From: Euglena gracilis
Lineage: Eukaryota
Assembly (NCBI GenBank): GCA_039621445.1
Contig: CP154954.1
Location: 33,581,455-33,645,454, forward strand
Direction of reading: 5' to 3'
Length of the DNA: 64,000 bases
Of the stretch, positions 1 through 42,000 are shown one piece after another. The notes under the pieces are model-generated. The model did not search any database. It was not told where the DNA came from and saw only the letters and a program-made list of their open reading frames with translations. The stretch's first letter is position 1; every line of letters starts with the position of its first letter. The translations under genes were made by a program, and so were the position numbers.

Positions 1-538
1 CTACCGTCTATGAGCTCACCGAATGTTGGGAAGTTTTGAGAGGAGTTCTGTTTGTGCTCATAGGGCTATGGCCACATCGACCACCACGTCACGACTCCCC
101 ATCGAGTGTGCATGCCATTATGCGGTTGCTGACTTGTTTATGGTCCGAAGTATGCAACATCGGCGAGGCCTTTCATTTCTACCTGCCCCCCAATCACCTA
201 ATGACACTACCCAACGTTCTCCGGCCGAGAGCACTTTCCCCAGAGTACCTCCAACGGAGCCCTCCTCGTCCGACCTCTCCCCATTGAATGTACACACCGT
301 TGATATCCTGGACATCATGGCCTTGTTACGTCCGACAAGATCAGCAGTTTTTTTGTTGACCGTCACGTCCGGAGGGCACGACGGACAGCACAAAGACAAC
401 CAAACTGCCAACGCGGTGACCAACAAGGTGACATAAGCCCTAACCACGCTGTCAAAACCGAGAGGCCCACACACCAAGATGTCACACTTTGTGGTGACGT
501 TCAGCTTGAGCCAGGACCTATTCACCGGATAACCCCAC

Positions 539-3100
539 GTGAAGGACCCCTATCCCTGCGACCTAGCACCCGGCCCCATTGCGGACGACCAACTTGCACT
601 ATGGCCTCAGGGCCTTCTAAGTTGTCAAATGTGGCCCCAGGGCACGCCAACCACGTACGGCAACCGATTAACCAGGAAAACGCGGTATGGGTACAGTCCC
701 CCCTGGTGTGGCAGGGGCAAAAGCCTTGCCAGTTGTGGCGACATTGAAAGCAACCCAGGTCCCACAGAAACCCGCCCTCCCCAGCAGGAGGACGTTGAAA
801 TGGCCTCAGCCGCACAGACCTCTGCTGTGGCTGACGGAGCTACCGCTCCTTGGATCTTGGTTTCCAATGCACTCGACGCCGCTGTTCTCGCCTACTTTGT
901 CCCAAGCTATAATGCCGTTTCCCAGTTTGAACGGGGGCCCCGGGGCACCCGCAGCTGAACAAATCATGGTCATTGACGAACTAGAGTCCCGGGTGCGCTC
1001 AGCGATTTCCGAAATTCACGGGTGTGCGCCGCAGGGCCAGGGGATGATTGAGAATTTTGTGCCGTCCTCACCACAAGGGCAAGAGCAACAGTGCCAAAAT
1101 GGTCGAAGGCCGCAGCACCCCGTGGCTGTAGCACCAGCGCAATCCTCGACGAACGCTGATACGCTGCAAGTCACTCCCTTCTCGCAACCTTGCCCACCAC
1201 TGCAGCCATCTTGGGAAGAAATTTCCCAAGACACGCGGGGCACGTTGGTCCATATCCCACGGGGAGCGTTGCGAAACGTTGGGCTCGCCTTTTGCAGCAC
1301 CCTCAGTCGCTTTGTATCAAAACCAGGATGGGAAACCCTACACACACTTTGGTGCTTCCCAAAAGCTGTGCTTGCTCCACTGAAGCGGAGCGGGAAAAGC
1401 CATTGGGCTGCAGTTGGACAGAAAATTACTGAGAGAGCCAATGCCTACCTCAACCGGTTCACAGAAGATTCGTGGGATGAGACTCGCCAAATTCGCGATG
1501 CACAAAACCCAAAGAAGAGAACACGAAGTCAGACAAAAAATTTCGATGCAGAAAGCCAAGAAAGATTGTGCAACCGTGTTCAAAGCCTTGTCAGCCATGG
1601 GGCGGTCAGTAAAGCCTGCCGCATGCCAACTTCTGATGGAATCCAAGATGCAGATGACCCGCTAATCTTGGAACGGTTGGCTGCCTTGCACCCTCCTGAA
1701 CCCCAACCTGGAAGGCAAAATCTGCCTCCGGACTTCCCTCGCCTCGAATTCGATCTCAGTGAAGATGCAACCAGGGAGCGCCTAATTGAAATACGGAAAG
1801 CAGTCATGTCTTTCCCGAAGGAGTCCTCACCAGGACCGTCTGGACTTCGTCCAGATCATCTTAAAGACGTACTCTCTGATCCCCTGGGGACACAATCAGA
1901 ACAACTCCTCACAATTTTGGACCAATTCGTCCGAACATGTTTGACAAACGGAATTCACAACTCTGCGGCATGGGTTTTCGCTGGTGCCCGTTTGACTCCT
2001 CTTCGAAAACCCTGCAATCCAAGCGAAAACCTTGATGAGCTTGGCAATACCAACCCCATTTCTGACCCAAAGAAGGATGGCACGCGACCAATTGCAGCTG
2101 GGGAATGCCTGCGCCGATTGGTGGACAAATATTTGATGAGGCACCCCAAAATCAGGGACCTCCTTAAAGAACTGCAGCCACTACAATGCGGTGTAGGGGT
2201 CCAGGGGGCATGTGAACTCATTGCTATGGGACTGCAGCAAGACGTGAATCACCTGCACATGCAACAGGACAACACCTGGGCTTTGTTACAGGTAGATTTC
2301 AGCAATGCTTTTAATTGCGTGAAAAGAAAGACAGTCGTTGCTGAAGTGGCTAAACGCTGCCCGGAGGCGTACGTTTGGTTCGAGAGTTGCTACGTCGAAC
2401 ACAGCCCGCTCTTTTGTGGGTCATCACACCTTCGGAGTGCCTCTGGCGTACAACAAGGGGACCCTTGTGGCCCAGCCGGATTCGCCTTGGCGTTGCAATC
2501 TCTCGTCGAGTCCTTGCAAGACGTGGTGCCACTCCAATTGTGGTATTTGGATGATGGACACATCCTGGGAACCCTCCCACAATTACATGCAGCAATTACA
2601 GAAATTCAACGACAGGGGACGCTACTAGGCATACACCTCAACGCAAAAAAATGCCGCCTGTGGGGCCCTGCAGCAACAGAAGCCAATCGTGCTGAAATGC
2701 CGCAAAACAGCCCACTTCGTGCAGTCCCAATCGTGAACTACTCCCCTAATTCTGGTATACGGGCCCTGGGAATCCCGGTATGCCATCCACAAAGCGGAGG
2801 CTTTGCGGGGGAAGTGTGGGCTGAACGTGCAACAGGTGTGCAGAAAGCTTGCCGGGCCCTTTTGAACCTGCCTCAAGCCCATATTCAGTTCTGCCTCTTA
2901 CGAACCTGCCTAGATGCTTGCAAAGTTAATGACCTCCTGCGTGCAACAGAACTGGGGCAGGCAAATGACGCATGTGCTCTGTTGACCAAAGAAATCAGGA
3001 ACACAATGAGCAACATTGTTGGATCCCCAATCGATGACAACCAATGGGCTCAGGCCACCCTACCCGTGCGTCATGGCGGACTCGGAAATCGGGACCCATC
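539..3100 (+). pseudogene. Leader-2A-RT polyprotein of element A; frameshift at ~900-960; endonuclease lost
   Basis: The 2A lies in ORF 539-958 and the RT in ORF 687-3455, a different frame. RT-like sequence ends at GGLGNRDP (~3100). Confidence 0.8.
710..763 (+). other. 2A-like StopGo peptide GRGKSLASCGDIESNPG|P
   Basis: Exact D(V/I)ExNPGP consensus with T2A-like upstream context. Confidence 0.85.
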
Positions 3101-9796: not shown

Positions 9797-12700
9797 GTAC
9801 CTTTGAATTCAGGTGTTGAGTGGGAGAAAGAATGTGGAAATGAATGCCTTGATTTCCTTGGATAATTGAATTGTCCTTTTTGATCTTTCAATTTTCAATT
9901 GACTTTTGTGCTTTTGTGATTCTCAATTCGAATTCTCAAATTCTTGCTGGAATTTGCTGGTGTTCCAATTCCACTCGCGTGGCGGTTGACTTGCTTTGGA
10001 TATTCCTACTGGGGTTTTTGGGAATTTTCTGGGAAATTTTTGGCTGCCGACGCCAGCGGCAGCCGACACCCCCTCCCTTGCGACGTTAGTCGGACCCGTT
10101 TTTCTGCCCCCCCCCCCCGAACAAAAACGGGGAGAGTGAAAATGATTTTTTTTGTGGGGGGCGAAAATTCTGTTTTTTTTTTGAAACGGGTCCTGTCGCT
10201 TTTTTTTTGAAAATGTGTGTTACGAGTCGGACCCCCCCCCCAGCCATAATATCGGGCACCTTGGGGGACTCTGAAAAATCAGGTCTGCGAGGGAAGCCCC
10301 CCACCCCTTTCCTCCGACAAGCATGGGGAAACGGGTCTTTGAACACAAATCTGAAAAACGATTCCAAACGAAACAAACTCTGGGCACTCCACCCCAAGGC
10401 CTAAGTCCCACGCTGCCCCCCTTGGTGAAAATCCTTTTTGGCAGCTTTCATTGTGTGAGACTTCATTTGTCGATTTTTTTAAAAAAAAAATCAGGGACTT
10501 TGGCCAACAGCGCCTCAGAAAATGACTTGTGTGGGGAAAAGAAAAAGAGAAACCTAGGCATTCCTTTCCAATTCGGGACAGTTGGGTAAGAAAAAGGCAA
10601 ATGGTAAGCAAAAGTGAAAAGTGAGAGGGTAAGCGGTCATATGGAATAGTGTACAATGGGTGTGCGGGTTCGTGTGCGTGTGCGGTTGTGTGTTTTGTGT
10701 GTATGCACGCTCACTTCCTTGTCATGCATTCCAACCGAAAATGACTGGGCTGACTTTTTTGAACGCAAAGATAACAGGGCTTCACATTGGCCCACAGCCA
10801 CTATATCACAGGGCTTTAGTGCCCACGTGGCTGGTTTTTTTTTTCATTGGCCCACAACAGGGCCTATGGACGGAGGAGGGGTCATCTCCGGTCCAGGGTC
10901 CCCCCCCCCCGAGTTCGGATGCCTCCAAGCTGTGTTCCATGTAAAATGCCTTTGACCAATATCCATTATCCAAACCGAATCAAAAAAACTGAGTTCTAAA
11001 GCTCCAACTCGTCTTGTCGTCCACCAGAAAAATTATTAAAATCCCAGGCTTTTTCCAACTCTTTGTGTAAAAATCCTCCAGCAACAAAAATCATCAAAAA
11101 AATCAAAAATCTGGGTCCAACACAGGGCCTACAAAAGCCCTCAACAAAATCCAATACAGAATTCCAACCTCTGACATCCAGCTGAGAACAACCAACCCAA
11201 ACAAAAGCATCCAGCAGCATACCGTTGTTGAGGGGCCAGGCCATCCGGCCCAGCTGTGGGTCCAACCGATTCACTGGAGCCGTAAAACCAACAAATCCGG
11301 CTTGCCAATTTAAATTCACTGCCCCCCCCCCCCCAATCACACGGGGCAATGGGGGTCAAATGACATGGCAAACTCAAAAATACTGAAAATTCAAATCCAA
11401 TTTTCTCAGCCAAAGCGATTTTTAGCTGCCCCCCCCCCCAGTCACATGGGGCCATGGGGGTCAATCTGGCTTCAGCCTCCAAACAAAAAATCACAAACCT
11501 GGGCCGTAATATCCAAACCGACTGAAATCTCACACATGTCAAAGGACGGGCCTTCACAATGTCGCCCCCCCCCCCCCACCGTCAACCAATGTGGGGAGGG
11601 CCATGGGTTAAAAATTCCTGGCTGCAAAATCAGAATCCCCATTCGACAAATAAAATGGGAAAAATGGAAATTTCATCAAACCCCGTCACATCTGGGGTGT
11701 GACCAAAACAATCACGGTCACAATATGATGCATTCCTGTCCCCACCCAAACGTCTCACAGGGGTATCCAATTCTGAGTCAAAAAATTCCAACCGTAAAGC
11801 CAAAACTGATTTTGATCCACCACACCAACAAAAAACAGGGCTCAACACAGCCCCCCCCCCAGCTGCACGAGGAGGGAGAAAAAATGGCTCCAAACCACAT
11901 GCAAAATCCTGAGACCCAAAAACATGAAAAATCTGATTCAGCGCTGTGGGAGCAGCCAACCTGGCCTGGACCTGGGCTTTGGCCGTGCATCGGGCCACTG
12001 CCCACTGCAGGCTCTTGAGGTCGTTAAGCTTCTCTCCCCAGCACTTCAGTAAAATAAATGTACCCACCATTCTGGGATTCCATAAACGATCCACAATTGT
12101 AATCATGCCAATCGTAATCATGTGATTCAATTGCTTGGGTCCCATTGATGTCATTGAAATCGGTTCTCATCTCATCGAAATGTTCATCCCAGTCTTTGAA
12201 GTCAATTCTTTGCAAACTGTTGAAGTCTTTGAATTCAATAAATTCAGTCAAAATCCTTGATAACTTAACTGCTTTGCTCCTTCATTTCGTGATTGCTGCT
12301 TGAACCTGCATGACAAGGCACACACACACGCACAAAATTCACCACTGGCAACACAGAAGGCAGATTTCTGAATTTTCTCACTGAACCGAACCTGAAAATG
12401 CCACTGAACTCTGAACCAAAACGGCACTTAAAATCTGTATCTTGATCCATCAAATGGGTCACACGAAAACTGTATAAGCAAGTCTCAAACTGCAAAAATT
12501 ACCATTGGGAGTTTTGCATTGTGAGGCGTCCCCCACTTCTGAGTTTTTCTCCCTCAAGCAAACTCCACAGCCGAAAAAATGCCGCAGAAAGTGTTACCCA
12601 CAGATCAACAGATTTTTCACTGAAAAACTGAACTGAATGCCACTGATGATGCCACTGCTGGGCCCAAAAATGAATTTTCCTCAGGGGTGTCTTTTCCTCC

Positions 12701-13540
12701 TGGGGTTAATCCACCTTGGTTCCCAAGACTGAAAAACTGAAAACTGTTTCCTGAGCCCTTAGATGGATGGCCACAGGGGTGTTTATTCCTGGCCTGGGTC
12801 TAGCCCCACCCTCGGAACCCCTCTTTGCGCGCTTTCCAAAAAACTTTTTGGTTCGAGTGGTCCATTAGAGGTCTCCCCTGCCTCAGGATTTGGCAAAAAC
12901 CCAGATAAAACCTGCCACAGGACTGCTGGGCTGCCACACTCGAAAACCACAATAAAAGTGGACTGAAAAATACCAAAAAACTGTGCGGATTCTCCAACAT
13001 ATGTCCCTGTCCGGGGGTAAGTTTCTCTCTGGAAAAACTGTCCCGTGACAAAAGGGACCAGCAAAAACACAAACCAAAATTCCAACCTGAAATGTCTGAT
13101 TTGTCCCCGTCGGGGATGGTGACACATTTCAATGCCGTGCCCCACCCCAAATGACATTTGGGACAAGAACCGAAAACTGAAAACTCTGAAACTGAAACTG
13201 AAAGATCATTGATCTGGCTGCCTGGACACTAGGAGAAATTCCCAAGCATCGTGGCTGGGCGTCTCCATTTAAGTGGAAAGCAACTGGGGAAAAACATGCA
13301 CCCCAGAAACCAGATTCAAAATGTTTGTCTTGGCTGTTTTTCCATAAGCCAAACTCTGTAAACTGAAAATCCAGATTTAAACTTCTGGCTGATTACGCAT
13401 CTGCCTCCAACACCAGGTCACCATGAAAAACGTATCACAAAACAATCACAAAGCCACAAGCAAACCACAAAAACATACTGATCTGTAAACTGCTGTGCGG
13501 TGCCAGTCAGTGGTTAGACCTGTGAAAAGACCTCAAAAAA

Positions 13541-14941
13541 TCACCACCACCATTGATGCGGTGGAAACCACCCCCAGCTGTTCCAGGGATTTAAATGCCA
13601 GTCCCAACCCCACCAATCTTGAAACCAACTTGGTCTCAAAAACTGAAAGTCGGTCCAAATGCTTTTGGCAGGCCTCCAGAATTTTTTTGTCTGTCTGAAT
13701 TTTCTTGGCTGTGCGGCAAAATCTGAGGAAGATTTCTCAGAAGACACTGATGACGGCTGCAAATTTATGACATGTCCAGAAGTCAGGTTCACAGGCACAA
13801 AGTTTTCTGGACTTGGAAATTTTTCACTGGGCTGTAACCTTTCAGTGATTTCAAACATTTTCAGCCGTTCCTCCAGAATCTTTTCTTCACTCTCCAGCCG
13901 TTTTGACAGAGCCTCGCCCTTCTCACACAGGGACTGGATGCTTTCAGAAAAACGGTGTTCAATTTCACTGCAAGTTCGTGTCAAAAGGTCATGAAAACCA
14001 TCTGCCAAATTTCTCAGACGGGTTTCAATTTCAGCCATCCGTCCTTCCAAGTGGCTGGACTCACTTTGGCTGGGCACTTCCTCCAGTTTCGTCAGCCTCT
14101 CGTTCAGAGAAAAAGTGTTTGAAAACAATTCTGTGATACCTGCCTCAACTTTTTGCCACCACTCATCCCAAGGGTCATAAAAAGTTTCAGGTTTTGTGAC
14201 CTCTGAAGTTTCCACACTGTCTGATTTGACACTCAGCTGTCCGGATTCAGATTCACACCGCACAACTCTCATTTGCAAAACATTTGGACAAGGGTCAAAA
14301 CTTTCTTGTTTAACTTCAGGTTCTCCTGGCAGTGAGCTTGTTGGGCTTACCCCTGACGGTTTACAAGATTGACATGGAGAAGATGAGTCAGGGCCATGAG
14401 AATGTCCAATGGCTGCTTCACATCTGAGTTTCCAAAACTCCCTCTGAGACGCCAGAAGTTCAGCCTCCCTTTTTCTTTGTTCCTCTGTTTGGGTATCACT
14501 CAATTCAATTCCCAACAATTTGAATTGGTCACTGTATTCCTTGAATTCTTTGTCATCAACAGAATCTAAAAATTCTTCACTGACAGAGTCAGTGAAGCCA
14601 CCTCTGCGTACCATGTTGGGGGTCTTGGGGGACCCTGCTCGCCCGGGGGGGCTGCTGCTTTCGCTGGGGCCACAATTTCCCTTTTCTGGCCCTGGTGGGC
14701 TCAGGCCAGGGCCTTTGGCAAGTTGGGCCCCGTTTTCAAATAAATCCACAGGCGGTAATGGGGGTGAGGTGTGCCCCCCCGACCCAGGTCCCCCTGTCTC
14801 CCCGCGTAGGATCGTTTTTAGCCTCCACTGTTTTGCCTTTTCAAACATTTGGATCAAAAGGTGAGCAAGGACAAAACCAACCCACCTACTTAGGATCAAA
14901 CAGCAGAGCACAACAAACCTGGGGCTTGAGAGGGTGGGCAA
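13541..14941 (-). CDS. Hypothetical coiled-coil protein with Trp-rich C-terminus, encoded by the tandem unit (start uncertain)
   Basis: 466-codon open frame with heptad-like segments (LNERLTKLEE, MAEIETRLRNLA, LSKRLESEEKILEERLK). Counterpart present in all four units. Confidence 0.55.
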   Translation of the reverse strand: MPTLSSPRFVVLCCLILSRWVGFVLAHLLIQMFEKAKQWRLKTILRGETGGPGSGGHTSPPLPPVDLFENGAQLAKGPGLSPPGPEKGNCGPSESSSPPGRAGSPKTPNMVRRGGFTDSVSEEFLDSVDDKEFKEYSDQFKLLGIELSDTQTEEQRKREAELLASQREFWKLRCEAAIGHSHGPDSSSPCQSCKPSGVSPTSSLPGEPEVKQESFDPCPNVLQMRVVRCESESGQLSVKSDSVETSEVTKPETFYDPWDEWWQKVEAGITELFSNTFSLNERLTKLEEVPSQSESSHLEGRMAEIETRLRNLADGFHDLLTRTCSEIEHRFSESIQSLCEKGEALSKRLESEEKILEERLKMFEITERLQPSEKFPSPENFVPVNLTSGHVINLQPSSVSSEKSSSDFAAQPRKFRQTKKFWRPAKSIWTDFQFLRPSWFQDWWGWDWHLNPWNSWGWFPPHQWWW

Positions 14942-15280
14942 GTACCTTTGAATTCAGGTGTTGAGTGGGAGAAAGAATGTGGAAATGAATGCCTTGATTT
15001 CCTTGGATAATTGAATTGTCCTTTTTGATCTTTCAATTTTCAATTGACTTTTGTGCTTTTGTGATTCTCAATTCGAATTCTCAAATTCTTGCTGGAATTT
15101 GCTGGTGTTCCAATTCCACTCGCGTGGCGGTTGACTTGCTTTGGATATTCCTACTGGGGTTTTTGGGAATTTTCTGGGAAATTTTTGGCTGCCGACGCCA
15201 GCGGCAGCCGACAACTCTCACCCGCACAGGACTTCGGCCTAACCCAGCACACCAGAGTAATCCAAAAAAAAAAATAAGGC

Positions 15281-16260
15281 GGCAAGGCGCAAGGGCGCAA
15301 ACCAGAAGGGCCCGGCGAGGAGGTCCGAGGGAAACGGAGTATTGCGTCCCTGAGGAGCTCCTTCCACCGCACCTGTTTACCATCCGGGGATGCAACTCCT
15401 GCAGTTTGACCCAGACAGCCGGATCGGAAGAGCGGTGGGTTCCTTCGAACAAGAGAACTTGCAGGGCCTTCGCAGGGGCCCCTTCCCCCACCAACGTGCG
15501 GGCACGGCGGAGAACAGCGGCCGGTATGGCGGCGGGCTCGGTGCGTGCTCTTTTGGCTGCCCGCGTCTCGATGGACGCTGGTGGGAGACGGGTGGCGTTT
15601 CTCAGCTCTGTCATCAGCGTTCCATTGTCCCCTTGCCGGAACAGTTGGACGCGCCGCCTGATCGCGGTGGAGATGTCCTCATCGGCCTCACGCCCCGCAC
15701 TTTGGACTGTCCGAAGCAGTTTGGGGAAGGCGAGGGTGGCGAACAGGCTGTCCATGGTTGGCCTGCTGACGTATTCCTCTATGACATTGGAGAGGGTCTC
15801 GGACACGTCACGTTGGTTGGCCGCAGGCACATGAAGGATCGTGTTTGCGCGGCAGAGGAAGACCTCCTGGAGGTTGGCCGGCTGGGGCGGGATGGTGATT
15901 CCGGGCGGGCCACCGTGACGGAGGTCAGAGTTCTTTCCGCTTTGGTCGACCACCACAGCCGCGGGTGTGTCGTCAGCTGGGTGTGCTAAATCGTTTTGTG
16001 CTGTCACGAGGCGCCTCCGCGGACACGACAACCGACGTGGCTGACCTCTTTCTGCCTCCCGGCGGACCTGGGTTGCTTTCAATGTCCCCGCAGTACAAGA
16101 GGCTCCCTCGGCCCGTCTTGGCGGGCGCTCGGCAATAGGGGAGTTGTCCATTAGGTTGATCATAATGTGGTCCACGGTGCACCGGGGAGTCACGGCAGGT
16201 AAGCGCGATTCCCCTTCGGCGATTGGTTGGGAAAGCCCTCCTACACACCGGCGCCGCCAA
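15281..16260 (-). mobile_element. Inverted 5' part of CRE element B (2A, N-terminal region, up to SSPGPSGLRP)
   Basis: Minus-strand frames give GRGSLLYCGDIESNPGP, LAFPKLLR, RARTLVGEGAPAKALQVL and FPRTSSPGPSGLRP. Confidence 0.85.
16063..16113 (-). other. 2A-like peptide GRGSLLYCGDIESNPG|P
   Basis: 14/17 identical to Thosea asigna T2A GRGSLLTCGDVEENPGP. Confidence 0.9.
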
Positions 16261-16267
16261 GGACTAA

Positions 16268-18190
16268 GTGGGCCGGCTGAGTCCCCTGCAGGTAGGGGTT
16301 GGGGTCCCCAATGCGTCCGAATCCGTCGCCATGGCAACCCAAAGTCTGGTCCGGAAACTGGATCCGCAGGGGAACTGGGCCATTCTTCAGGTGGACCTGA
16401 AGAACGCCTTCAACACACCGGACAGAAATGTCCTTCTACAAGAAGCGCAAACGCGCACTCCAGCGCTTTTCAACTACCTGCGCTTCGCCTACGGCCAGCC
16501 GGCACCGTTGTTCAGCGGAGGACGCGTGCTCCACTCCACGAGAGGCACACACCAGGGTTGCCCCCTGGGACCCCCTGGCTTTGCAGTGGGCCTCCACACC
16601 ATCAGCGAGACCATCAGCCAGCAAGCAGAGTTGCTCTGGTCCTCATGGTACCTGGATGATGGGGTGCTTGTCGGTGAGCCCTGGGCTTTGCAGAAGTGCC
16701 TCGAGTTCCTGCGGACCGAAGGCGCACGCAACGGGGTCCAATTGAACCCGGCGAAATGCGTCGTATGGGGTCCGGCTGCTGGCGCACTCCCTGACCGCGA
16801 GAAGGTTCAAGTTGTACCCTGGGTCGAGGGCTCTGGGATCACTGTCCTGGGCTGCCCCGTCGACTTCCCAACCACGGCAGGGCACACAGTGGCAGCATGG
16901 ACGGAGGCAACAACCAAGCTGGAACAGGCTGCGGACCTAGTCACCTCGGTCACTGACCCCCAGCTGGCGCACCACATCCTGAGGTCTTGACTGGACGGCT
17001 GCAGAGTTAACCACCTCCTGCGCGCCTCTGATCCCTACCAGGCGCAGGGTGAAGTGATTCGGTGCAGTGAGACGATCTTCGGTGCCTTTAAGGACATCAT
17101 CGGCCAAGCCCTCAGCACAGACCACCGCCTGCAGGCCTCGCTACCGCTGTCACAAGGTGGGTGTGGCCTTCGTATTCCCGCCTCCCACCAAGCAGCAGCC
17201 CGTACCGCCGCCCTGTGCCAGTTCTACACACATGGACATAAGCGGGTCGCATGTCCAAGCTACGCGGCCGCCCCGGACGACCGGCTCTGCCAGCAAGCCG
17301 CCAGTGACCTTGGCTCCGTCCTCGGCACCCGTCACCCTGAGAGCAACCGGCTGACAGCATCAGCAGCCTTCGCCTCTGCATCGGCAAATGACACCTCGCA
17401 GAAATGGTGGCAGACCCAACTATCCAAGGCCCATGTGGACGCCCTCATCGCCACGTGGTCTGCAAGGGACCAGACACGTCTTATGGAACAGCTCAACGGT
17501 ATCGGCCACGGCTGGATGGCAGCAGCCCCCAATGAGGCTCTGCACACGGTGATTGAGCCCACCGACTACTGCCTTGGCCTAAAGTGGTGGCTTGGGCTGC
17601 CCCTGGCTGACACGCCAACCACGTGCGCGGGGTGCCATTCTGTGGCAGACATCCACGGGGATCACGACATGTGCTGCATTCGGAACAACTTTGCAAGCCG
17701 ACACAACGCCGTTCAGGAAGCCTTATTCAACCTCCTTTCCGCGAACGGCCAGAGTGTCCAACGCGAGGTGCCAGTACCAAACCAGCCAGACGCCTCCCTG
17801 CGACCAGCGGACCTGTTGCTGGCAACATGGCAAGACGGGAAACCGACCGCGGTAGACATCGCGGTTGCACACGGCTGGCAGTCTGCTGAGAGGACAGCGT
17901 CCAGGGAACGATGGAGAACCTTCCTCAAACGGAAGGAGACCGCAAAGCACGCCAAGTACTACATATTGTGCCGAAACGGGGGCTGGTCCTTTGCCACGCT
18001 GGCATTTGGGACATGGGGAGGCCTGGGCCCGGAGAGCGCCAAGCTGCTGACAAGACTGATCGAACGATCGACCTCCTGGGATCAAGGCGACGTGCGTTTG
18101 ACGCGGCAGGCTGAGAGCTACCAGAGCTTGGCATTGGCCCTGTTCAAGCAGATCACTCAGTTGCTACGACCGAAGCATGTGCTTCGCTGA
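16268..18190 (+). pseudogene. RT plus restriction-like endonuclease of CRE element B; in-frame TGA at 16988
   Basis: QVDLKNAFN, GTHQGCPLGP, WYLDDG, CAGC..HDMCC, RHNAVQ, RPADLL, AVDIAV, KHAKY. ORFs 16268 and 17054 share one frame. Confidence 0.9.
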
Positions 18191-18717
18191 TTCACTGTCT
18201 AACATCTGACAGCGATACCAGCAACACGGACCTCGACCCGGCTGACCCCGGCTGGCCACTACACGTCTCCACCGGCGGCTCATCTACCTCCGACAAAAGA
18301 TCAGGACAAGGCACGACGCAGATGGCCGCCCAAAGGGCGAGGCCATCGGCGCAAACGATACACAAAGGCATTCATCCGCTACCGGCATTCCCGGCACAGA
18401 GGGCGCACCAAGACAGCCTACGAAGCAGCCACTGCTCCCAGAACACGGACAATACGGTTCAACGCTACAGGCACAAGCCTCTACTGCCGCTGCCCGCGGG
18501 CACCTTAACCTCCCTGCCATTCAACCACCTCCTCACCCACTTTCTCCCACGCCCCGCGAACCTCCTCACCCTGTCATCCCCTTGCGCTTTATACTTTATA
18601 ATGAAGATGGGCTTTGCCCGTTTTCCACCCGCTGAGCCCTGCGACAGTCGATACCTCTGCCTATCCATGGGGTTCCCCCTTCTGTCCATAGCCCCTGTCT
18701 CCCCGGAACACTCAAAT

Positions 18718-18761
18718 CCAGTAGGCTGTGCCACTGGTCGGTGGATTCGGTTCGCCCCACC
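18718..18761 (+). other. Conserved 3'-terminal double hairpin (element B)
   Basis: CCAGT-A-GGC-TGT-GCC-ACTGG-TC-GGTGG-ATTC-GG-TTCG-CC-CCACC; recurs at nine places in the window. Confidence 0.8.
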
Positions 18762-21700
18762 ACAGTATTTTTGTCTCATGTGGAAAAAAAACGACGACTT
18801 GCAGCCTTCTTCTCACTGGAGAAGGACACGGTGGTGGGGCGAGCCGAGTCCACCGACTAGTGGCACAGCCTACTGGATTTGAGTGCTCAGGGGGAGGGCT
18901 ATATACAGAAGCGGAAGCAGCAGTCTGTCAGAGGTAGAGGTACAGGAGAAGGCGTGTAAAGCCGAGCGGTCTTGGTAGCAGCGGAGACGGAGGGACGAGG
19001 GGAAACTTGGCGGATGAGGTGCGTTGGGGGTGAGAGGCGGAGGGCGTGGTGGCTGGTGTGTGTGTGTGTGTGTGTGTTTTGTGTGTGCTTGCGGTTTTTT
19101 TTTTGGAGGGATGGGATGTGAGATTGGTAGGTCATCTTTGCTCAATCCATTGCATATGGGCTATGGGTGGTGGGATCCACCTCTCCAGATGGCTCCGCCA
19201 CCGCACCCCATGCCAGCTGGCGGGCCACTTCTCTTGCCAATGTGAGACTCAGGGTTTGCCAGACGGAGGCTTTAGATGAGCGTCGTTGAAAAAACATCTG
19301 TTTGAGCCAATACAGTGCGGAGGCATTTGGTGATGAAGGTTGCAGCCTGCTCCCCCACGCCCCCAAAGCAGTCCAGCACGAATGGGATGAACGAACGAAC
19401 GAACAAATGAATGAATGAACGTCCACCCAAGGCGTTCACAGGTGGCTGCGTATTTGCGGCATTTTTTGGCTTCCTGTAATTCGTGCCACCGTGCTACGGC
19501 TTCTTTTGTGGAGACCGGATTGGCTGGCTGGAGCGGGTGACGCACCGTGACATCCACTGCTGCGGGTCCGTCAGCATCGTCCCTGGTAATGAAGACATCG
19601 CCGAGCCTTGTCTGGTTGTCTGCCACCTCTTCTCTTCGGGCCATGAATCCCGCTTTCCTTGCAAGCTCCACGACAAACGTTTGAAGGGCACCATGTCGCC
19701 GCAAAGTGTTGTTTTTTGGGCAGCAGACAAGGCGATTTCCGCCAAAGTCCATTTGCTGGTGGCAACGAGGGCATTCTGGCAAGGAACCATCTGGCATTGT
19801 CGGGCAAATTGCACACCCTAGAGACCATTGCGTCAGCGCTCTGAATTCGGCTGGTGGAATGAGTGTTTTCAGTGGAGCAGAGGGATTAACCGCAGCCCAG
19901 GCCATGGCGTGTGGCTTCCGCTGGCAGGTAAAACGGACTGCGTCGTTTCCTGCAAAGCTGCCCAAAAGTAGGTCAGCCCGTACTTTTACGACCTCATATG
20001 TCCAAAACTTCTGTCTCGTCATTGTGGGGGACAAGGAGCTCACTTTGCTTGGGTCCGCAAGGATGTCAGTGAGAGGTGCCAACCCTTTGTTGAGACTCGA
20101 AATTAGCAAGCCCGTCTCGCCATGGTCACGTGGAAGCTGAGGGCAGCCTTCCGGTTGGCCCAGAGTGCTGTGGGAGAGGAAACCCAGGATAGCTGCCCAT
20201 CTGGCCGGTGTTCTGGCTGCTTCTGGGTCTCGGATCCCCAGTCCTCCCAAGCGGACAGGAAGTGAGGCCTGTGCCCATTGTTTGTCGTCCATTGGGCGGG
20301 CGGTGATGACCGACATTGTGTCCCGTAGGATGCTGGAGGAGGAATGGCACTGTATTTTAGCACCCGAGAGGCGCGTGGTTCGCAGCAAATCATTCACTTT
20401 GCAGGCATCAAGGCATTGCCTGAGCACAGTGAATTGTAGATGCGGTGACGGCACCAATTGTAACAGGTGGCACGCCTTCTGGACACCGGTGAGGCGCTCC
20501 TCCCAAAGGAGGGAGGCAAATTCAGGCGTTCCACCCGGGTGGCAAACAGGCGCGCCGAGTGCGCGAATGCCGGTGCCGGCTGTGAAAGGCTCGACCGGGA
20601 TGCCCTGAAGGATGCCTTCTCCGTGCTCCACAAAGGCTGGACCACACAGTCTGCATTTCGCCAAGTTGAGACCTACACCAATCCGTGGTCCCTCAGATAC
20701 AATCAACCAAACTGCCCTCTCAAGCTGCTCCGGTGTGCCCATGACGTGGGCATCATCCAGGTACCAGGCTTGCCAGCCCACGATGCCTTGCAGTTTGTCC
20801 AGCAATGGCTGTATCCCGAGGGCAAATGCGGCCGGCCCGCACGGGTCCCCTTGCTGCACACCAGACTTGCTTCGGAGGGATGTCTTTCCCAGATACAACC
20901 GAGAATGGCGTGCGTAGCAGCTCTCCAACCACGGCAGCAGGGAGGGGACATCTATCGGCGACCTCGGCCAGTAAGTTCTCTCTTGATATGCAATTGAATG
21001 CATTTGAGAAATCCAGCTGGAGTAACCCCCAGTCAACCTTCCCGATATGGGACAGGCCGTCAACTATCTGCTGAATGCCCATGCTTATCAATGCGCATGC
21101 GTCCGGTACACCTACCCCCAGCTGTTGTGGCAAGGCGGTAGCCAGGGAGCGGCGGACTTCTGTGTGGCGCATTAGCACTTTTGCCACCAGGCGTCGGAGG
21201 GTTTCCCCGGCAGCAATGGGCCGTGTGCCTTCCTCTTCAGGGGATGTTTTGTTTACGGGGTCGGTGGGTGCGCCGGTCCCTGTTTTTGTTTTGCGGAGTG
21301 GCGTGAGGCGATCCGCACATAGCACTTGCGCTGGTCCATCAGGGATTCCCTTCATTACACAACCGAAGACAAATTCTGTCAACTCGTCCAGGAGGTCTTC
21401 TGCAAAGCTGCCAGCTTCATCACTGAGGAGGGACTTCAGATGTTCAGGACGCAGTCCTGAAGGGCCTGCGGATGATTCAGGGCCGAAGCGCCGTACTGCC
21501 TGTTTCACCATGCGGCGGTCATCTGCCAAGTCCTCGCAGCGAGAGGGTGGTTTTAACCTTGTGGGAGGGCCCCTTCCTGGTTCTTTCTCTGTTGGGTGCA
21601 TTCGGCGTAATCTCTCCCGCACAACGGGATGAGCCGCATCCTGGACTCCTTCGGAGAGAAGTAACTGGCATGCCTTGCCCACGGCTCCTCTCGCCACCGG

Positions 21701-22332: not shown

Positions 22333-22386
22333 TGGGCCAGGGTTTTCTTCAACGTCGCCACACGACAGTAGCCCGCCTCTTCCCCG
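22333..22386 (-). other. 2A-like peptide RGRGGLLSCGDVEENPG|P
   Basis: 15/18 identical to T2A EGRGSLLTCGDVEENPGP. In frame with the downstream element ORF (21730-22233) across a single TAG. Confidence 0.92.
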
Positions 22387-22429
22387 TAGGTGGAAACCCC
22401 ACGCTATTACGGCTGGAATTGTGCTGAGC

Positions 22430-22989
22430 CCTGGGGCAAAATTTGACGGCATTACGGCCTTGGGCCCTGGAGCCACATCTGTGAAACACTTTTCCGTGCC
22501 CGTTTTGGCTTGAGACGTGTTGAGCCCTGGGGCCAAATTTGACAGCATCATGGCTGAAGCCTTGGGCCCTGGGGCCACATCTGTGAAAAACTTTTCTGTG
22601 CCAGTTTTGGCTTGAAATGTGTTGGCTGAAGCCTTGGGCCCTGGGGCAACATCTCTGAAAAACTTTTCTGTGCCAGATTTAGTTGGAAAAGTGTTGAGCC
22701 CTGTGGCAAAATTTGACAGCATCATGGCAAAAGCCTTGGGCCCTGGGGCCACATCTGTGAAAAACTTTTCTGTGCCAGTTTTGGCTTGAAATGTGTTGAG
22801 CCTTGGGGCAAAATTGGACAGCATCATGGCTGAGGCCTTGGTCCCTGGGGCAAGATCTCTGAAAAATTTTTCTGTGCCAGATTTGGTTTGAAATGTGTTG
22901 AGCCCTGGGGCAGAATCTGGGAGCATCATGGCAAAAGTCTGGGGCCCTGGGACCACCTCTCTGAAATGTTTAGAAGGCCCTGGGGCCAT
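22430..22989 (-). repeat. Coding minisatellite, 102-nt/34-aa unit (DVAPGPKASAMMLSNFAPGLNTFQAKTGTEKFFT), ~5.5 copies
   Basis: ccctgg anchors at 22465, 22567, 22639, 22741, 22843 and 22945 (spacing 102/72/102/102/102). Confidence 0.9.
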
Positions 22990-23293: not shown

Positions 23294-23318
23294 CTTTCTG
23301 ACTGTCTATGTTTTTTCG
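23294..23318 (+). other. Euglenid spliced-leader-like exon relic CTTTCTGACTGTCTATGTTTTTTCG
   Basis: 23/25 match to the Euglena-type SL CTTTCTGAGTGTCTATTTTTTTTCG as recalled from memory. Confidence 0.65.
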
Positions 23319-24486: not shown

Positions 24487-27400
24487 TGTCGCACAACTAC
24501 CATGTCTTGACTGCCCCTGGTGGGGTCCAAGCTCATTGAACATCTTCCCCATCTTGCAGATAACGTCGCCTGAAGCACAAGTATCAAGGAAAGGAAAGAA
24601 GTTCAAGTCGTCAACCAGAACATGAACACAGAGGAGGAGTCAATTGGTTGCCTGCGGAACAAGAGGCATCGCAGCGACAGTTCGGGTGTAAGCCACGACC
24701 CCGGTGTAGCACTTTTGGAGTTCGTAAGGGGCCAGGACGTGGTGAACCTCCGCTCCTCAGCGAGCAGCAGCACAGCCACCACCACCCCCAAGCCAAAGGC
24801 GCCATCAAGAAGAACACCCCCAAGGGGAGGGAAGGGGGCAGAAAGCAGGGAAACGCCACGGGTTCCCGTGGCACTCGGCCGCCACGTCGAAGGAAAGCAA
24901 GGGGATGATGCGGCGGCTAAGGACGATGAGGAAGAAGCAGAAGCAGAGGGACCACGAACCCTCATGTGTCCCTTTTCATCGTGCCCAGAAGCCCTCACCA
25001 CCAAGTCCCGCAAAGCATTGGTGTCGCACCTGGCCGCGCACCATGTGTCGCACGGCCAAGTGTTGCCGTCGGCAGTCCTCCAAATGCTGAGGGTACGGGT
25101 CTGCGCAGGCCCCTTCCGCTCACTCGTGCCCCAAAGCGAGAGATGCAGGAACTGCAAGGTGGCACCGCAAAGCCTCGACACCGCAGAGGCAACACGGGGC
25201 CCCGTGCCTCTCATCCCCCCGAGGGATGCAGCCGCGCCACAAACGGGAACACCAACCACAAGCCGATGCCCACAAATGACGCCCACGTTTGATGAGGTGC
25301 TCGTCGTGCATGTGCCCACAGTGAGACACATCCCAGCAATGTGTCGCACCGCCATCACCCAGGAGCTGGCACATCTAGTGAGGGATGTGGCAGTCCCAGT
25401 GCCAACATGGGAGGCGCTCCACCGTCTCATATGTTTCCCAAAGCTGGTCTTGCGTTAATCAGGCCGGGGTGGATGCAAGCACCAGCGGCACGCAGCACAT
25501 GACATGGACGGACGGCTGCGTCTCTTTCAGCAAGGCCAGTTGGGAACCTTGTGGGCCGAGGCGAAAAAAAAAACGCCCAAGCACGGCAGACCCCATTGGA
25601 CCAACCGGCGCGCACAAGGGCACAGGCCAAGCGGGAGGAGGAAGAGGAAATGTCACCATCACAGGTGGGGAAAATCAGGGCTTTGGTGGAGGAAGGCGCA
25701 CTGCCCAAGGCCGCTAAGCTGTTGGTGTCAGATGCGCTGGTCAACTTGCAGGAACCGGGTATGGAAGCCGTACTGAGGGACCTCCATCCCCCAGCACAGC
25801 CGCACTTGGTCCCGTCAGGGGATTTGCCCACCTCGATTGCCTGCCGCCTGGGGACGAGGGCATGCACGACGAGGAGAGCGACGAGCAGTGGTCCAAGCGG
25901 GCCTGGGCAGCCGTGGTCTCCTTCCCCCCGGGGTCTAAGTCCAATCCACCTCAGTGAGTGTTGCCGAAAGCTGGGGCCCGGGGGGGGGCCTGGTCCAAGC
26001 CCTTGGCAAGCTTGCTGCGACGGCCCTGACCACATCATTGCCGGAGAGCGTGCGAGAAGTACCATGCGCCTCCACGCTCATCCTGCTCCGCAAGAAGGAT
26101 GGGGGGGTGCGACCGATTGCCGTCGGTGACACCCTCCGGCGAGTGGTGGGCAAGTGCCTTCTCCATTCTGAAGCGGTGAGGATGTTGATGGCAGCCCTAC
26201 AACCGCGGCAGTGCGGGGTGGGAGTGCGAAACGCCGCCGAGATGGTGGGCATGGGCCTGCAACGCTCGTCCAGTCAAGCCACCTCCAAGGGGATAACGAC
26301 CACGTGGTGTTGCAGGTGGATATGTGCAATGCCTTCAACTTCATCAGCAGGGATGCAATGCTCCGGGGATGCTTGGCCAAGGTACACACGGCGTACAACT
26401 GGCTGCGCTTTTGCTACAGTGGACCAAGTCCGTTGTTCTGCCAAGGGCGCTTCCTGTGTACAAGCCAGATCGGAGTGCATCAAGGCGACGCATGCGGGCC
26501 CTTGGGATTTGCACTGGACTTGGACTACGCCCTTGACCAGTGCTTTGCCCGGGACTTGGCGCTTTGGCGGCGGCCACATCGTGGGGAAACCAGCAGTGGT
26601 GTTGGCCCGCCTCCATGACATCAGCACGGTCCTAGGCCTAGGCCTAGCCCTAGGCCTCCACCTCAATTTGGCCAAGTGCAATTTTTGGGGACCTGGGATG
26701 CAGAACAGTCTATCAAGCCGGGCCACATTACCCAGACGGTTTGGCAGAAGACCACTTGGGAAGACAAGTGCCCGTGATTCCTTTTGGAGGACAGAGGGGC
26801 ATCACGACCCTGGGCGTCCAGATTGATGCCCCGCGGGAGCATCACACAGCACAAGAGGACACGCCAAGAGCACCACAATGCCAAGCCGTATGGGAAGAGA
26901 CCGTGGACAGGGCGACCTTGCTCCTGTAACGGCTCAGGGGCCACCCAGAGGGGCAAGAGCGGCACGCACTCTTGCGGTACTGCCTTGACGGATGTCGGGT
27001 GGTCCACTTCCTCCGATCAACGGAGAGAGAAAACGCACGGGACTGCCCGCTCATTCTCAGGGCATGGCTGGAGGAAGCCGTACAAGATCTCCTCGGACTG
27101 GGAATCACCGAGAGTTCACGGGATCAAGTCTCCCTGCCCATCCGCCAAGGGGGACTCGGAATCTCGGACCCCGACGTGTTGCAACCCGCGGCACGGATGG
27201 CGGCCTTGTTGAACCTGGGCAAGCAGTGGGGGTGCCAGCCTCGGTGTTGGCAACCCCATCCCCGGAAATGCAAGACAGGCTACAACGGTTGCATCAACAG
27301 CTTGGCCCCAACGTGGATCCCGTGGCCAGCTGGCCCGCAGGCACCACCCCACTCTCTCCGCAGCACCAGAACACGCCTCCCAACGGTGGTGGGCGGAGAA

Positions 27401-28314
27401 AGTGGCGGAAATGCAGAGCCAGTGAGTCGACGCGGTCGGCTTTGCCAGGGACCGGCTGAGAAGGGCTTGCCAAAAGGGACCGGTGGAAACGGGATGGCTA
27501 CGGACTTTGCCCAGAAAGGCACAGCACACAGCTTTCTCGGACATCCAATACTGGCTGCTACTGCAGTGGTGGCTTGGCCTGTCCATCCTCCCTTCAGGGG
27601 TCACGCTGCAGGGGTGCCCACTGTGTCGAGGGTCCATTGACCCCTTCGGGGATCATTCGTCTGCTGCGAGCAGAATGGAAACACCGAACGGCACAATGCA
27701 TTCCGAGATGCTTTTGCAGCGATGTGTGCCCTGTACAACATTGCGGTGGAGAAGGAGGCAGAGTGTTTGGCGAACAACAGACCGGCCGATGTTCTCCTCA
27801 TCAACTGGTCACAGGGGCAACGAGGCCTTCGGACCTCTGCCAGGCGGTGCTGTTTGAGGTCACCAAAAGGGCCACCGCAGACATGCGGGGATGGCCAAAG
27901 ACAAGGGCCATGAAAGAAAAGCAGGAAGCACTATCGGTGACACTCATGCGCCACGTTGCGCGGCAGGTATCCGCCAAGGACCGCGTGGAGCAGGCCCTCC
28001 ACCCATGGTAAGTCCCCAACCCCCACCGCAGACAGCACCAAAAGCGCGCAAGACCAAGGCCAAGACGGCCACAACCCGCAAATCGCGGAGGTTCACCACG
28101 GAACCACCCCCCCAAAAGGCGCCCCCCCCCACAAAAAAAAACGAAGCCGCCAAAAAAAACAGAGCCCACACGCCAGGCGAAAGGTATCCGCCCAACGAGG
28201 CAACAAATGGGAGTGGAGCCGGCAAAAGCAACGCACACGCAAAGGGTAGCCCGCCCGCCCCGGACTCCACAAGGTGAGAAGAGAGTGCGCGCGCGACCCA
28301 GCAAGCCGGCTATA
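24487..28314 (+). mobile_element. Heavily decayed CRE element E (N-terminal C2H2 finger, RT, RLE); cut by the assembly gap
   Basis: CPFSSC...HLAAHH, CFPKLVLR, KKDGGVRPIAVGDTLRR, QVDMCNAFN, GVHQGDACGP, LPIRQGGLGI, CPLC, RPADVLL; many frameshifts. Confidence 0.88.
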
Positions 28315-28327
28315 NNNNNNNNNNNNN
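28315..28327. other. Assembly gap (13 N)
   Basis: N run. Confidence 1.
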
Positions 28328-38464: not shown

Positions 38465-41400
38465 GGCAAGGCGCAAGGGCGCAAACCAGAAGGGCCCGGC
38501 GAGGAGGTCCGAGGGAAACGGAGTATTGCGTCCCTGAGGAGCTCCTTCCACCGCACCTGTTTACCATCCGGGAACGGTGGTACTTCGCCGGGCAGCGCAT
38601 TGAGGCTTACTGGGCGTCCAGCGGGATGCAACTCCTGCAGTTTGACCCAGACAGCCGGATCGGAAGAGCGGTGGGTTCCTTCGAACAAGAGAACTTGCAG
38701 GGCCTTCGCAGGGGCCCCTTCCCCCACCAACGTGCGGGCACGGCGGAGAACAGCGGCCGGTATGGCGGCGGGCTCGGTGCGTGCTCTTTTGGCTGCCCGC
38801 GTCTCGATGGACGCTGGTGGGAGGCGGGTGGCGCTTCTCAGCGCTGTCATCAGCGTTCCATTGTCCCCTTGCCGGAACAGTTGGACGCGCCGCCTGATCG
38901 CGGTGGAGATGTCCTCATCGGCCTCACGCCCCGCACTTTGGACTGTCCGAAGCACCAGTTTGGGGAAGGCGAGGGTGGCGAACAGGCTGTCCATGGTTGG
39001 CCTGCTGACGTATTCCTCTATGACATTGGAGAGGGTCTCGGACACGTCACGTTGGTTGGCCGCAGGCACATGAAGGACCGTGTTTGCGCGGCAGAGGAAG
39101 ACCTCCTGGAGGTTGGCCGGCTGGGGCGGGATGGTGATTCCGGGCGGGCCACCGTGACGGAGGTCAGAGTTCTTTCCGCTTTGGTCGACCACCACAGCCG
39201 CGGGTGTGTCGTCAGCTGGGTGTGCTAAATCGTTTTGTGCTGTCACGAGGCGCCTCCGCGGACACGACAACCGACGTGGCTGACCTCTTTCTGCCTCCCG
39301 GCGGACCTGGGTTGCTTTCAATGTCCCCGCAGGACAAGAGGCTCCATCGGCCCGTCTTGGTGGGCGCTCGGCAATAGGGGAGTTGTCCACCAGGTTGATC
39401 ATAATGTGGTCCACGGTGCACCGGGGAGTCACGGCAGGTAAGCGCGATTCCCCTTCGGCGATTGGTTGGGAAAGCCCTCCTACACACCGGCGCCGCCAAG
39501 GACTAAGTGGGCCGGCTGAGTCCCCTGCAGGTAGGGGTTGGGGTCCCCAATGCGTCCGAATCCGTCGCCATGGCAACCCAGAGTCTGGTCCGGAAACTGG
39601 ATCCGCAGGGGAACTGGGCCATTCTTCAGGTGGACCTGAAGAACGCCTTCAACACACCGGACAGAAATGTCCTTCTACAAGAAGCGCAAACGCGCACTCC
39701 AGCGCTTTTCAACTACCTGCGCTTCGCCTACGGCCAGCCGGCACCGTTGTTCAGCGGAGGACGCGTGCTCCACTCCACGAGAGGCACACACCAGCGTTGC
39801 CCCCTGGGACCCATCGGCTTTGCAGTGGGCCTCCACACCATCAGCGAGACCATCAGCCAGCAAGCAGAGTTGCTCTGGTCCTCATGGTACCTGGATGATG
39901 GGGTGCTTGTCGGTGAGCCCTGGGCTTTGCAGAAGTGCCTCGAGTTCCTGCGGACCGAAGGCGCACGCAACGGGGTCCAATTGAACCCGGCGAAATGCGT
40001 CGTATGGGGTCCGGCTGCTGGCGCACTCCCTGACCGCGAGAAGGTTCAAGTTGTACCCTGGGTCGAGGGCTCTGGGATCACTGTCCTGGGCTGCCCCGTC
40101 GACTTCCCAACCACGGCAGGGCACACAGTGGCAGCATGGACGGAGGCAACAACCAAGCTGGAACAAGCTGCGGACCTAATCACCTCGGTCACTGACCCCC
40201 AGCTGGCGCACCACATCCTGAGGTCTTGACTGGACGGCTGCAGAGTTAACCACCTCCTGCGCGCCTCTGATCCCTACCAGGCGCAGGGTGAAGTGATTCG
40301 GTGCAGTGAGACGATCTTCGGTGCCTTTGAGGACATCATCGGCCAAGCCCTCAGCACAGACCACAGCCTGCAGGCCTCGCTACCGCTGTCACAAGGTGGG
40401 TGTGGCCTTCGTATTCCCGCCTCCCACCAAGCAGCAGCCCGTACCGCCGCCCTGTGCCAGTTCTACACACATGGACATAAGCGGGTCGCATGTCCAAGCT
40501 ACGCGGCCGACCCGGACGACCGGCTGTGCCAGCAAGCCGCCAGTGACGTTGGCTCCGTCCTCGGCACCCGTCACCCTGAGAGCAACCGGCTGACAGCATC
40601 AGCAGCCTTCGCCTCTGCGTCGGCAAATGACACCTCGCAGAAATGGTGGCAGACCCAACTATCCAAGGCCCATGTGGACGCCCTCATCGCCACGTGGTCT
40701 GCAAGGGACCAGACACGTCTTATGGAACAGCTCAACGGTATCGGCCACGGCTGGATGGCAGCAGCCCCCAATGAGGCTCTGCACACGGTGATTGAGCCCG
40801 CCGACTACTGCCTTGGCCTGAAGTGGTGGCTTGGGCTGCCCCTGGCTGACACGCCAACCACGTGCGCGGGGTGCCATTCTGTGGCAGACATCCACGGGGA
40901 TCACGACATGTGCTGCATTCGGAACAACTTTGCAAGCCGACACAACGCCGTTCAGGAAGCCTTATTCAACCTCCTGTCCGCGAACGGCCAGAGTGTCCAA
41001 CGCGAGGTGCCAGTACCAAACCAGCCAGACGCCTCCCTGCGACCAGCGGACCTGTTGCTGGCAACGTGGCAAGACGGGAAACCGACCGCGGTAGACATCG
41101 CGGTTGCACACGGCTGGCAGTCTGCTGAGAGGACAGCGTCCAGGGAACGATGGAGAACCTTCCTCAGACGGAAGGAGACCGCAAAGCACGCCAAGTACTA
41201 CATATTGTGCCGAAACGGGGGCTGGTCCTTTGCCACGCTGGCATTTGGGACATGGGGAGGCCTGGGCCCGGAGAGCGCCAAGCTGCTGACAAGACTGATC
41301 GAACGATCGACCTCCTGGGATCAAGGCGACGTGCGTTTGACGCGGCAGGCTGAGAGCTACCAGAGCTTGGCATGGGCCCTGTTCAAGCAGATCACTCAGT

Positions 41401-42000
41401 TGCTACGACCGAAGTATGTGCTTCGCTGATTCACTATCTAACATCTGACAGCGATACCAGCAACACGGACCTCGACCCGGCTGACCCCGGCTGGCCACTA
41501 CACGTCTTCACCGGCGGCTCATCTACCTCCGACAAAAGATCAGGACAAGGCACGACGCAGATGGCCGCCCAAAGGGCGAGGCCATCGGCGCAAACGATAC
41601 ACAAAGGCATTCATCCGCTACCGGCATTCCCGGCACAGAGGGCGCACCAAGACAGCCTACGAAGCAGCCACTGCTCCCAGAACACGGAAAATACGGTTCA
41701 ACGCTACAGGCACAAGCCTCTACTGCCGCTGCCCGCGGGCACCTTAACCTCCCTGCCATTCAACCGCCTCCTCACCCACTTTCTCCCACGCACCGCGAAC
41801 CTCCTCACCCTGTCATCCCCCTGCGCTTTATACTTTATAATGAAGATGGGCCTTGCCCGTTTTCCACCCGCTGAGCCCTGCGACAGTCGATACCTCTGCC
41901 TATCCATGGGGTTCCCCCATCTGTCCATAGCCCCTGTCTCCTCGGAACACTCAAATCCAGTAGGCTGTGCCACTGGTCGGTGGATTCGGTTCGCCCCACC
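38465..42000 (+). mobile_element. Duplicate of CRE element B (inverted 5' part 38465-39499; RT-RLE 39507-41429)
   Basis: Near-identical translations; 3' motif at 41957-42000. Confidence 0.9.
39302..39352 (-). other. 2A-like peptide GRWSLLSCGDIESNPG|P
   Basis: Duplicate of 16063-16113 with two substitutions outside the core motif. Confidence 0.88.

Follow-up and report, generated by a model that had tools for sequence, protein, structure and literature searches.

2A-like peptides at the N-terminus of LINE proteins have been described for L1Tc and ingi and then for Rex1, Crack, L2, L2A and CR1, all of which are APE-type elements in the accessible text of these reports (Heras 2006; Odon 2013, PMC3708506). 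Among viruses, GDIESNPGP, GDVESNPGP and GDVEENPGP are listed for 2As, with ~90–99% cleavage for the latter two, in the accessible part of one source (PMC8623073), and the accessible part of another gives a picorna-like virus 2A that ends in LLSCGDIESNPGP (PMC11512398). For dinoflagellates and for members of the TSAR group, 2A peptides are recorded in the accessible text of Rao 2025, with the gene context not named. Two 2026 preprints, as far as their accessible text goes, describe ORF2p-like 2A carriers that mostly have an APE domain and 580 RT-bearing contigs with 2As that are mostly 'non-LTR-like'. In the accessible text of this literature no statement that RLE-type elements carry 2As was found, nor any 2A report for the R2, CRE and NeSL clades; Repbase and the supplements of the preprints may list such elements. 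With 2As in non-LTR elements known since 2006 and 2013, we regard their occurrence in RLE-type elements as a modest novelty, and the multi-2A polyprotein of the relatives described below is a more novel lead than the 2A itself.

Within a 64-kb stretch of Euglena gracilis DNA (the window), three families of non-LTR element, A, B and C, carry a 2A-type motif (Table 1). In the first copy of element B (B1), the 17 codons read on the minus strand from 16113 to 16063 translate as GRGSLLYCGDIESNPGP. The C-terminal core D(V/I)ExNPGP is present as GDIESNPGP (16063–16089), and the preceding GRGSLLYCGD reads as the ~10-residue upstream context with a Leu-rich stretch. The second copy (B2), read from 39352 to 39302, encodes GRWSLLSCGDIESNPGP. 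The initial annotation had proposed a 2A-like motif with a duplicate at this site, and both are there by translation. A six-frame scan of the window with the strict pattern D[VI]E.NPGP returned five motifs (A, B1, B2, C1 and C2) against a mean of 0.0 in 200 mononucleotide shuffles. A chance match in G+C-rich sequence has nothing to recommend it except the shortness of the motif, and given these shuffles and the homologues that keep the motif at the same position, we assign it a negligible probability and consider a chance origin excluded.

The B peptide is close to known class-A 2As. It shares 13 of 17 residues with EGRGSLLTCGDVEENPG, the C-terminal remnant on PDB chains 7p2p_B and 8ut1_A, which we take to be what a laboratory T2A tag leaves after skipping. 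This likeness and the GDIESNPGP core ally it with the viral 2As of the Thosea asigna virus, iflavirus and picorna-like types, and copy B2 ends in the same 13 residues as the picorna-like virus peptide in the accessible part of its report (PMC11512398). That viral case was the only one in which a literature search found the exact 2A peptides in print. Unlike its viral counterparts, the B motif is encoded by a cellular retrotransposon and precedes an RT protein, where the viral peptides separate capsid from replicase. Over the D-I-E-S-N-P-G-P codons (737–763, plus strand; 16063–16089, minus strand; GAC…CC), families A and B have 23 consecutive nucleotides in common despite proteins that are only ~30% alike, which might be due to constraint on the codons of the motif or to a segment exchanged recently. 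The degenerate motif of family A at 475–519 (plus strand), 200 nt upstream of the family-A 2A, recalls the tandem 2As of relatives.

Table 1. Features of the 2A-bearing elements and of one related family in the window, with the basis of each assignment
Feature	Position	Strand	Basis or remark
2A/StopGo-type peptide, element B copy 1, GRGSLLYCGDIESNPGP	16063..16113	-	translation, six-frame scan
2A-type peptide, element B copy 2, GRWSLLSCGDIESNPGP	39302..39352	-	within segmental duplication
2A-type peptide, family A, GRGKSLASCGDIESNPGP	713..763	+	927-aa main frame (672-3452) one base off
Degenerate second 2A-like motif, family A (…LCGDVQLEPGP)	475..519	+	other frame
2A-type peptide, family C copy 1, GRGGLLSCGDVEENPGP	22333..22383	-	TAG in frame four codons on
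2A-type peptide, family C copy 2, identical to C1	45213..45263	-	six-frame scan
Upstream of 2A to inversion junction, B copy 1, ~100 nt	16114..16213	-	frame open, without ATG
Linker and N-terminal domain of B protein (P0011 residues 79-363)	15283..16062	-	tblastn P0011 54%; translations
RT, thumb, CCHC and restriction-like endonuclease of B	16214..18190	+	P0011 63%; RVT_1; RLE alignment
3' untranslated region of B	18191..18793	+	tail module ~18708-18770; A8 run 18786-18793
N-terminal region, B copy 2	38467..39301	-	tblastn P0011
RT-RLE part, B copy 2, same two premature stops	39453..41429	+	
Related family, C2H2 finger N-terminus, without 2A	24991..27799	+	probably the 'family E' of the initial annotation

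The protein encoded next to the motif places element B outside the APE-type LINEs. Pfam RVT_1 matches 16268–16987 (E 2.6e-12), and a C-terminal CCHC is followed by PD-(D/E)xK-type blocks (CAGC…H…C, RH, E, RPAD, AVDIAV, K…KY) that align with 13 relatives; by comparison with what is known of R2, the RH, E, RPxD, D-x-T and K blocks are presumably those of a restriction-like endonuclease. Pfam detected an APE (Exo_endo_phos) domain in none of 22 relatives and in none of the 42 long window frames scanned. The family profile matched R2 proteins best among solved structures (8e-15, with L1 ORF2p at 1e-3). The RT-RLE frame of family C, compared with the PDB as a single sequence, gave no match, and look-alikes in the ESM Atlas were generic RVT_1 clusters only, with uninformative taxa. 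By its predicted domains element B, labelled CRE in the initial annotation, is shown as far as an RLE-type, R2-like non-LTR retrotransposon without an APE domain. It is like the R2, CRE and NeSL elements in having a single RT protein with a C-terminal CCHC and PD-(D/E)xK-like blocks, and unlike them, as far as the accessible literature on those clades shows, in having a 2A. With the APE-type 2A LINEs it shares a canonical D(V/I)ExNPGP in frame near the N-terminus of the RT polyprotein and, as in the elements of trypanosomes and marine invertebrates, a position that is the same across families together with a scattered distribution over clades, to judge from the accessible text on those elements (PMC3708506). 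It differs from them in the C-terminal CCHC and restriction-like domain, in the missing APE domain and in relatives whose accessory modules are separated by as many as three 2As.

Neither a spliced-leader nor an rRNA target was seen in the window, Rfam returned no family at gathering score over its full length, and the dinoflagellate spliced-leader motif, searched with up to 3 mismatches, had no match in it. A spliced-leader resemblance in the 102-bp repeat of family C was dropped, being antisense to element C and having failed this motif search. A dinoflagellate genome has been annotated with the LINE classes 'CRE-Ambal' and 'R2-NeSL' in the accessible part of its report (PMC11572971); a literature search on SLACS and CZAR in dinoflagellates found nothing relevant.

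The copies of element B in the window are decayed. The initial annotation placed the motif upstream of the family-B N-terminal region, and tblastn with the relative P0011 agrees: residues 57–100, 2A included, align to 16128–16009 and residues 109–363 to 15992–15283 (54% identity), both on the minus strand, while residues 424–822 align to 16214–17407 on the plus strand (63% identity). From these alignments the 2A-bearing N-terminal piece and the adjoining RT piece are one element whose 5' kilobase has been inverted. The 5'-most point lies centrally, at the inversion junction, where ~60 residues are missing and the copy is truncated ~90–100 nt upstream of the 2A. Such geometry is the outcome of twin priming in L1, and it suggests the same origin for the B inversion; no target-site duplication was identified. 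Premature stops at 16265–16267 (TAA) and 16988–16990 (TGA) are common to both copies. In both, a one-base shift between 16009 and 15992, 18–23 codons downstream of the 2A, puts the motif out of frame with the conserved N-terminal region (DLAHP…), and copy 1 has a second frame change at 15384–15387. In family A the 2A stands one base off the main 927-aa frame, with the same direction of shift as in B, and in family C a TAG follows NPGP after four codons in the 2A frame. The 2A and the downstream coding sequence thus share one ORF in none of the window copies, whereas they do in seven relatives. We read the break between 2A and RT in A, B and C as decay, given the intact frame of the relatives and the further lesions in the copies; programmed frameshifting, considered for the +1 shift in A and B, was rejected as the main reading given the in-frame relatives and the other stops in these copies. 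All A, B and C copies in the window are pseudogenes. The stretch upstream of the B 2A has no similarity to the sequence upstream of the 2A in relatives, and a search of the window for Dam-like or SLBP modules adjoining A, B or C found none.

Self-comparison of the window revealed a ~23-kb segmental duplication (7152–28314 against 30369–51185, 96–99% identity) overlying ~5-kb tandem repeats (e.g. 10228–15213, 28328–33255, 33414–38398), and element B sits within a 5-kb tandem repeat. Both B1/B2 and C1/C2 are halves of this duplication and are therefore not separate transpositions. The second copy of the motif claimed initially does exist, but as a product of segmental duplication in which both halves are decaying: the B1 and B2 motifs differ by two nonsynonymous and no synonymous changes. 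The B copies were already dead at the duplication, were copied passively with the surrounding DNA and have drifted since. For annotation of this Euglena gracilis window it follows that all five motifs lie in dead copies, two pairs of which are segmental duplicates. A run of N at 28314–28327 marks an assembly gap at one boundary of the duplication, and a 470-aa coiled-coil-like frame in the tandem-repeat region (13541–14953, minus strand) has no Pfam match.

The intact state of the architecture is seen here in relatives only, which are machine-predicted proteins from contigs. P0011, a JGI protein of 822 aa that matched the N-terminal region of B, has the 2A, the N-terminal domain and the RT in one unbroken frame. 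Seven of the seven family-B relatives that span the site (P0011, P0162, P0092, P0101, P0028, P0022 and P0025), 41–63% identical to B, carry a canonical in-frame 2A, 17–33 residues before the DLAHP-type motif by manual count. The initial claim that A, B and C hold the motif at the same position is borne out by translations, in which each 2A closely precedes the RT protein's N-terminal domain, ~83–159 residues before the first conserved block. These relatives also bear on the possibility that the motif is a piece of an RNA virus, picorna-like or other, integrated by chance beside the retrotransposon. The identical 13-residue end of a picorna-like virus 2A would fit such an origin, but in all seven family-B relatives the 2A continues in frame and without interruption into the N-terminal domain of the retrotransposon, and Pfam found no viral capsid, helicase or RdRp domain in the 42 long window frames; we hold a viral fragment to be very improbable.

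Upstream of the 2A, several relatives carry further modules in the same frame. A Dam-like domain with NPPF is found there in four of the seven family-B relatives (P0162, P0028, P0022 and P0092), and P0092 and P0022 each show a tandem pair of 2As. In P0162 (41% identical) a Dam-like domain, a Cys-rich stretch, the 2A and the N-terminal domain follow one another in one frame. P0001 (a single 1736-aa frame on a 5794-nt contig) and P0002 (a single 1849-aa frame), which are 47–50% identical to A and C, each have three 2As, and these set apart SLBP_RNA_bind (2e-13 in P0002), Dam-like and RT-RLE parts. In all, the Dam-like module stands upstream and in frame in 7 of the 16 2A-bearing relatives examined (P0001, P0002, P0018, P0022, P0028, P0092 and P0162), and P0025, P0003 and P0118 have only a short leader before the 2A. 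We know of no description of Dam-like or SLBP-type accessory modules in LINEs. The named relatives come from Diplonema and a dinoflagellate, and the Diplonema papillatum proteins have degenerate versions of the 2A such as GDIHPNPGP. In an AlphaFold model of P0162 (mean pLDDT 50) the 2A falls in a low-confidence stretch, 220–342, between better-predicted blocks, and the Dam-like part itself scores below 52; the model is weakly suggestive of the 2A as a separator in an unstructured linker.

That the motif is selected, as initially proposed, is well supported by its conservation. In an alignment of ten relatives (A1), mean pairwise identity over the 18 motif columns is 80.4% (616 of 766 pairs), against 31.8% in the 40 columns upstream, 26.0% in the 40 downstream and 37.5% in the N-terminal domain. 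Eight of the invariant columns of A1 fall inside the motif, with G-R-G and L almost invariant, and the canonical D[VI]ExNPGP core is intact in all ten. Between B and C, 15 of 18 motif codons differ, 10 of them synonymously and 5 nonsynonymously. Given the motif identity of 80% against 26–32% in the flanks, the motif appears to be under selection as a 2A-type peptide. Such conservation in RLE-type elements widens the range of 2A use beyond the APE-type LINEs, extending a known trick to an older LINE branch, and it bears on whether LINEs acquired 2As early or repeatedly, possibly from RNA viruses.

How far the architecture extends was examined in an exhaustive search with the family-A frame, which returned 8571 representative proteins at E<=1e-3. 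A 2A-like motif is present in 9 of the best 150 of these 8571. Thirty-eight relatives were informative in that they retain the start of the N-terminal domain together with 100 or more residues upstream of it, five of them coming from other searches; the motif stands upstream in 12 of these 38, strictly in 10, and in 7 of the 33 informative rows among the best 150 of 8571 by a manual table count. In quick RT trees built on a query-anchored alignment (FastTree, 136 rows; IQ-TREE quick, 53 rows), B joins P0011 at 99 support within a 7-row clade (99–100) in which all five informative rows have the 2A, and the grouping of A and C with P0001 and P0002 has a support of only 89–91. The zinc-finger family at 24991–27799 falls in a neighbouring 8-row clade. 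On the 136-row tree, of which 94 rows are uninformative for the 2A, the label changes 10 times against 15.3 when shuffled, and none of 500 shuffles is as low; on the 53-row tree it clusters more weakly, with 11 changes against 13.1 and 49 of 500 shuffles as low. These trees suggest that the 2A architecture is conserved inside the A/B/C clade and patchy beyond it. The description of the architecture as lineage-wide therefore stands for that clade only, given the 12 of 38 in the wider family and a sister C2H2 family without the 2A. That C2H2 family is the probable match of the 'family E' which the initial annotation had found to lack the motif, and it does lack it; were the element at 56894–63998 meant instead, this is a Ty3/gypsy-like LTR element and no relative. 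A zinc-finger N-terminus is no general contrast to the 2A, however, as P0003, P0018, P0032 and P0118 carry both.

Our results support a model in which the motif at 16063–16113 is probably the relic of a working class-A 2A (StopGo) peptide from an RLE-type non-LTR family, where it released an upstream product before the RT-endonuclease. The position, the conservation and the in-frame state of the 2A are observed in the relatives; ribosome skipping and its purpose are predicted from sequence. In an active element, the 2A would lie within one long frame, in a linker of low conservation that leads straight into the N-terminal domain of the RT-endonuclease. Between the glycine and the proline of NPGP the ribosome would let go of the upstream product, which in relatives would be a short leader, a Dam-like methyltransferase-like module or, in some cases, an SLBP-type RNA-binding module. 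It would then continue with the RT-endonuclease protein, whose N-terminus would be a clean proline, so that one ORF may yield two to four separate proteins. The B copy of the window would descend from such an element by inversion of its 5' 1 kb, truncation, a frameshift and two stops, and would later have been copied passively in the 23-kb duplication.

Two other roles for the peptide have to be weighed. The 2A might mainly free the RT-endonuclease from chance upstream translation, arising from host exon sequence, by read-through or co-transcription, or from variable 5' repeats, rather than from dedicated modules. In the B copy the 2A frame contains no ATG after the last stop ahead of the motif; the 102-bp array of family C, 38 nt upstream of its 2A, is open in the 2A frame with Met codons; and the leader is merely short in P0025, P0003 and P0118, all of which would suit this role. 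So would the origin of the named relatives, as the Diplonema group and the dinoflagellates show trans-splicing and polycistronic transcription, like the trypanosomes that carry L1Tc and ingi. Against it stand the Dam-like modules in frame upstream in 7 of 16 2A-bearing relatives, and the freeing of an RT protein and the separation of modules are not exclusive roles. As the main function we find it rather unlikely. Alternatively, the 2A might chiefly put a brake on translation, so that less RT protein is made, and contribute little or nothing to separation. In the accessible part of their report, Odon and colleagues suggest that N-terminal 2As down-regulate ORF2 (PMC3894237), and a 2026 preprint states in its accessible text that most retrotransposon 2A-like peptides lower protein abundance (PMC13405545). 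The core is intact in ten of ten aligned relatives, however, whereas LINE 2As of low activity are often substituted at the glutamate according to the accessible text of Odon 2013, and tandem or multiple 2As between folded modules suit separation better; a brake as the main role is improbable. Release of an upstream product thus remains our preferred reading, and freeing the protein from accidental upstream translation or lowering its amount would both be compatible with it.

The relatives with several 2As suggest how a single-ORF LINE can still yield several proteins. The usual picture of protist RLE LINEs is one of 'ancient' elements with a single protein. Tentatively, and with a little less than even confidence, we propose that this lineage encodes multi-2A polyproteins in which StopGo replaces ORF boundaries and releases SLBP-type, Dam-like and RT-endonuclease products, and that the peptides point to exchange between viruses and LINEs. 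If so, the multi-2A polyprotein would be a functional counterpart of ORF1/ORF2, with the family-B motif of the window as one decayed witness, and the near identity of the peptides to the 2As of marine picorna-like and tetra-like viruses would speak for such exchange.

A ~55-nt module (…TCAAATCCAGTAGGCTGTGCCACTGGTCGGTGGA.TCGG.TCGCCCCACCAC) closes the 3' UTRs of several different element families, with 8 matches against 0.06 expected (18718, 18859 on the minus strand, 24386, 41957, 47263, 51446, 51984 and 52113 on the minus strand); four of these form two tail-to-tail inverted pairs, 18718/18859 and 51984/52113, 129–141 nt apart. Folding of the shared 3' tail predicts two hairpins that are not significant (z-score -1.27), and the module could act as a recognition tail common to the RTs or mark a favoured target. 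The 102-bp tandem array of family C occupies 22421–22966 and again 45301–45845; more than 150 codons are open in the 2A frame with a recurring …FFTDVAPGPKA… unit, and the array may consist of 5' monomers or derive from a duplication of the 2A region that has since decayed. Another element is represented by a 3' fragment (23062–23944) with an inverted duplication as its 5' end, with the same residues on both strands around 23210. The Ty3/gypsy-like element at 56894–63998 (plus strand), of which a partial inverted copy lies at 53521–55186, encodes a coiled-coil gag with zf-CCHC, a protease (LIDTGC) and an RT (YIDD) in one frame with three in-frame stops. Between its protease and RT stands a Dam-like domain, with HPPP for NPPF, that is homologous to the Dam-like module preceding the 2A in LINE relatives (E 4e-8, 161-protein set).
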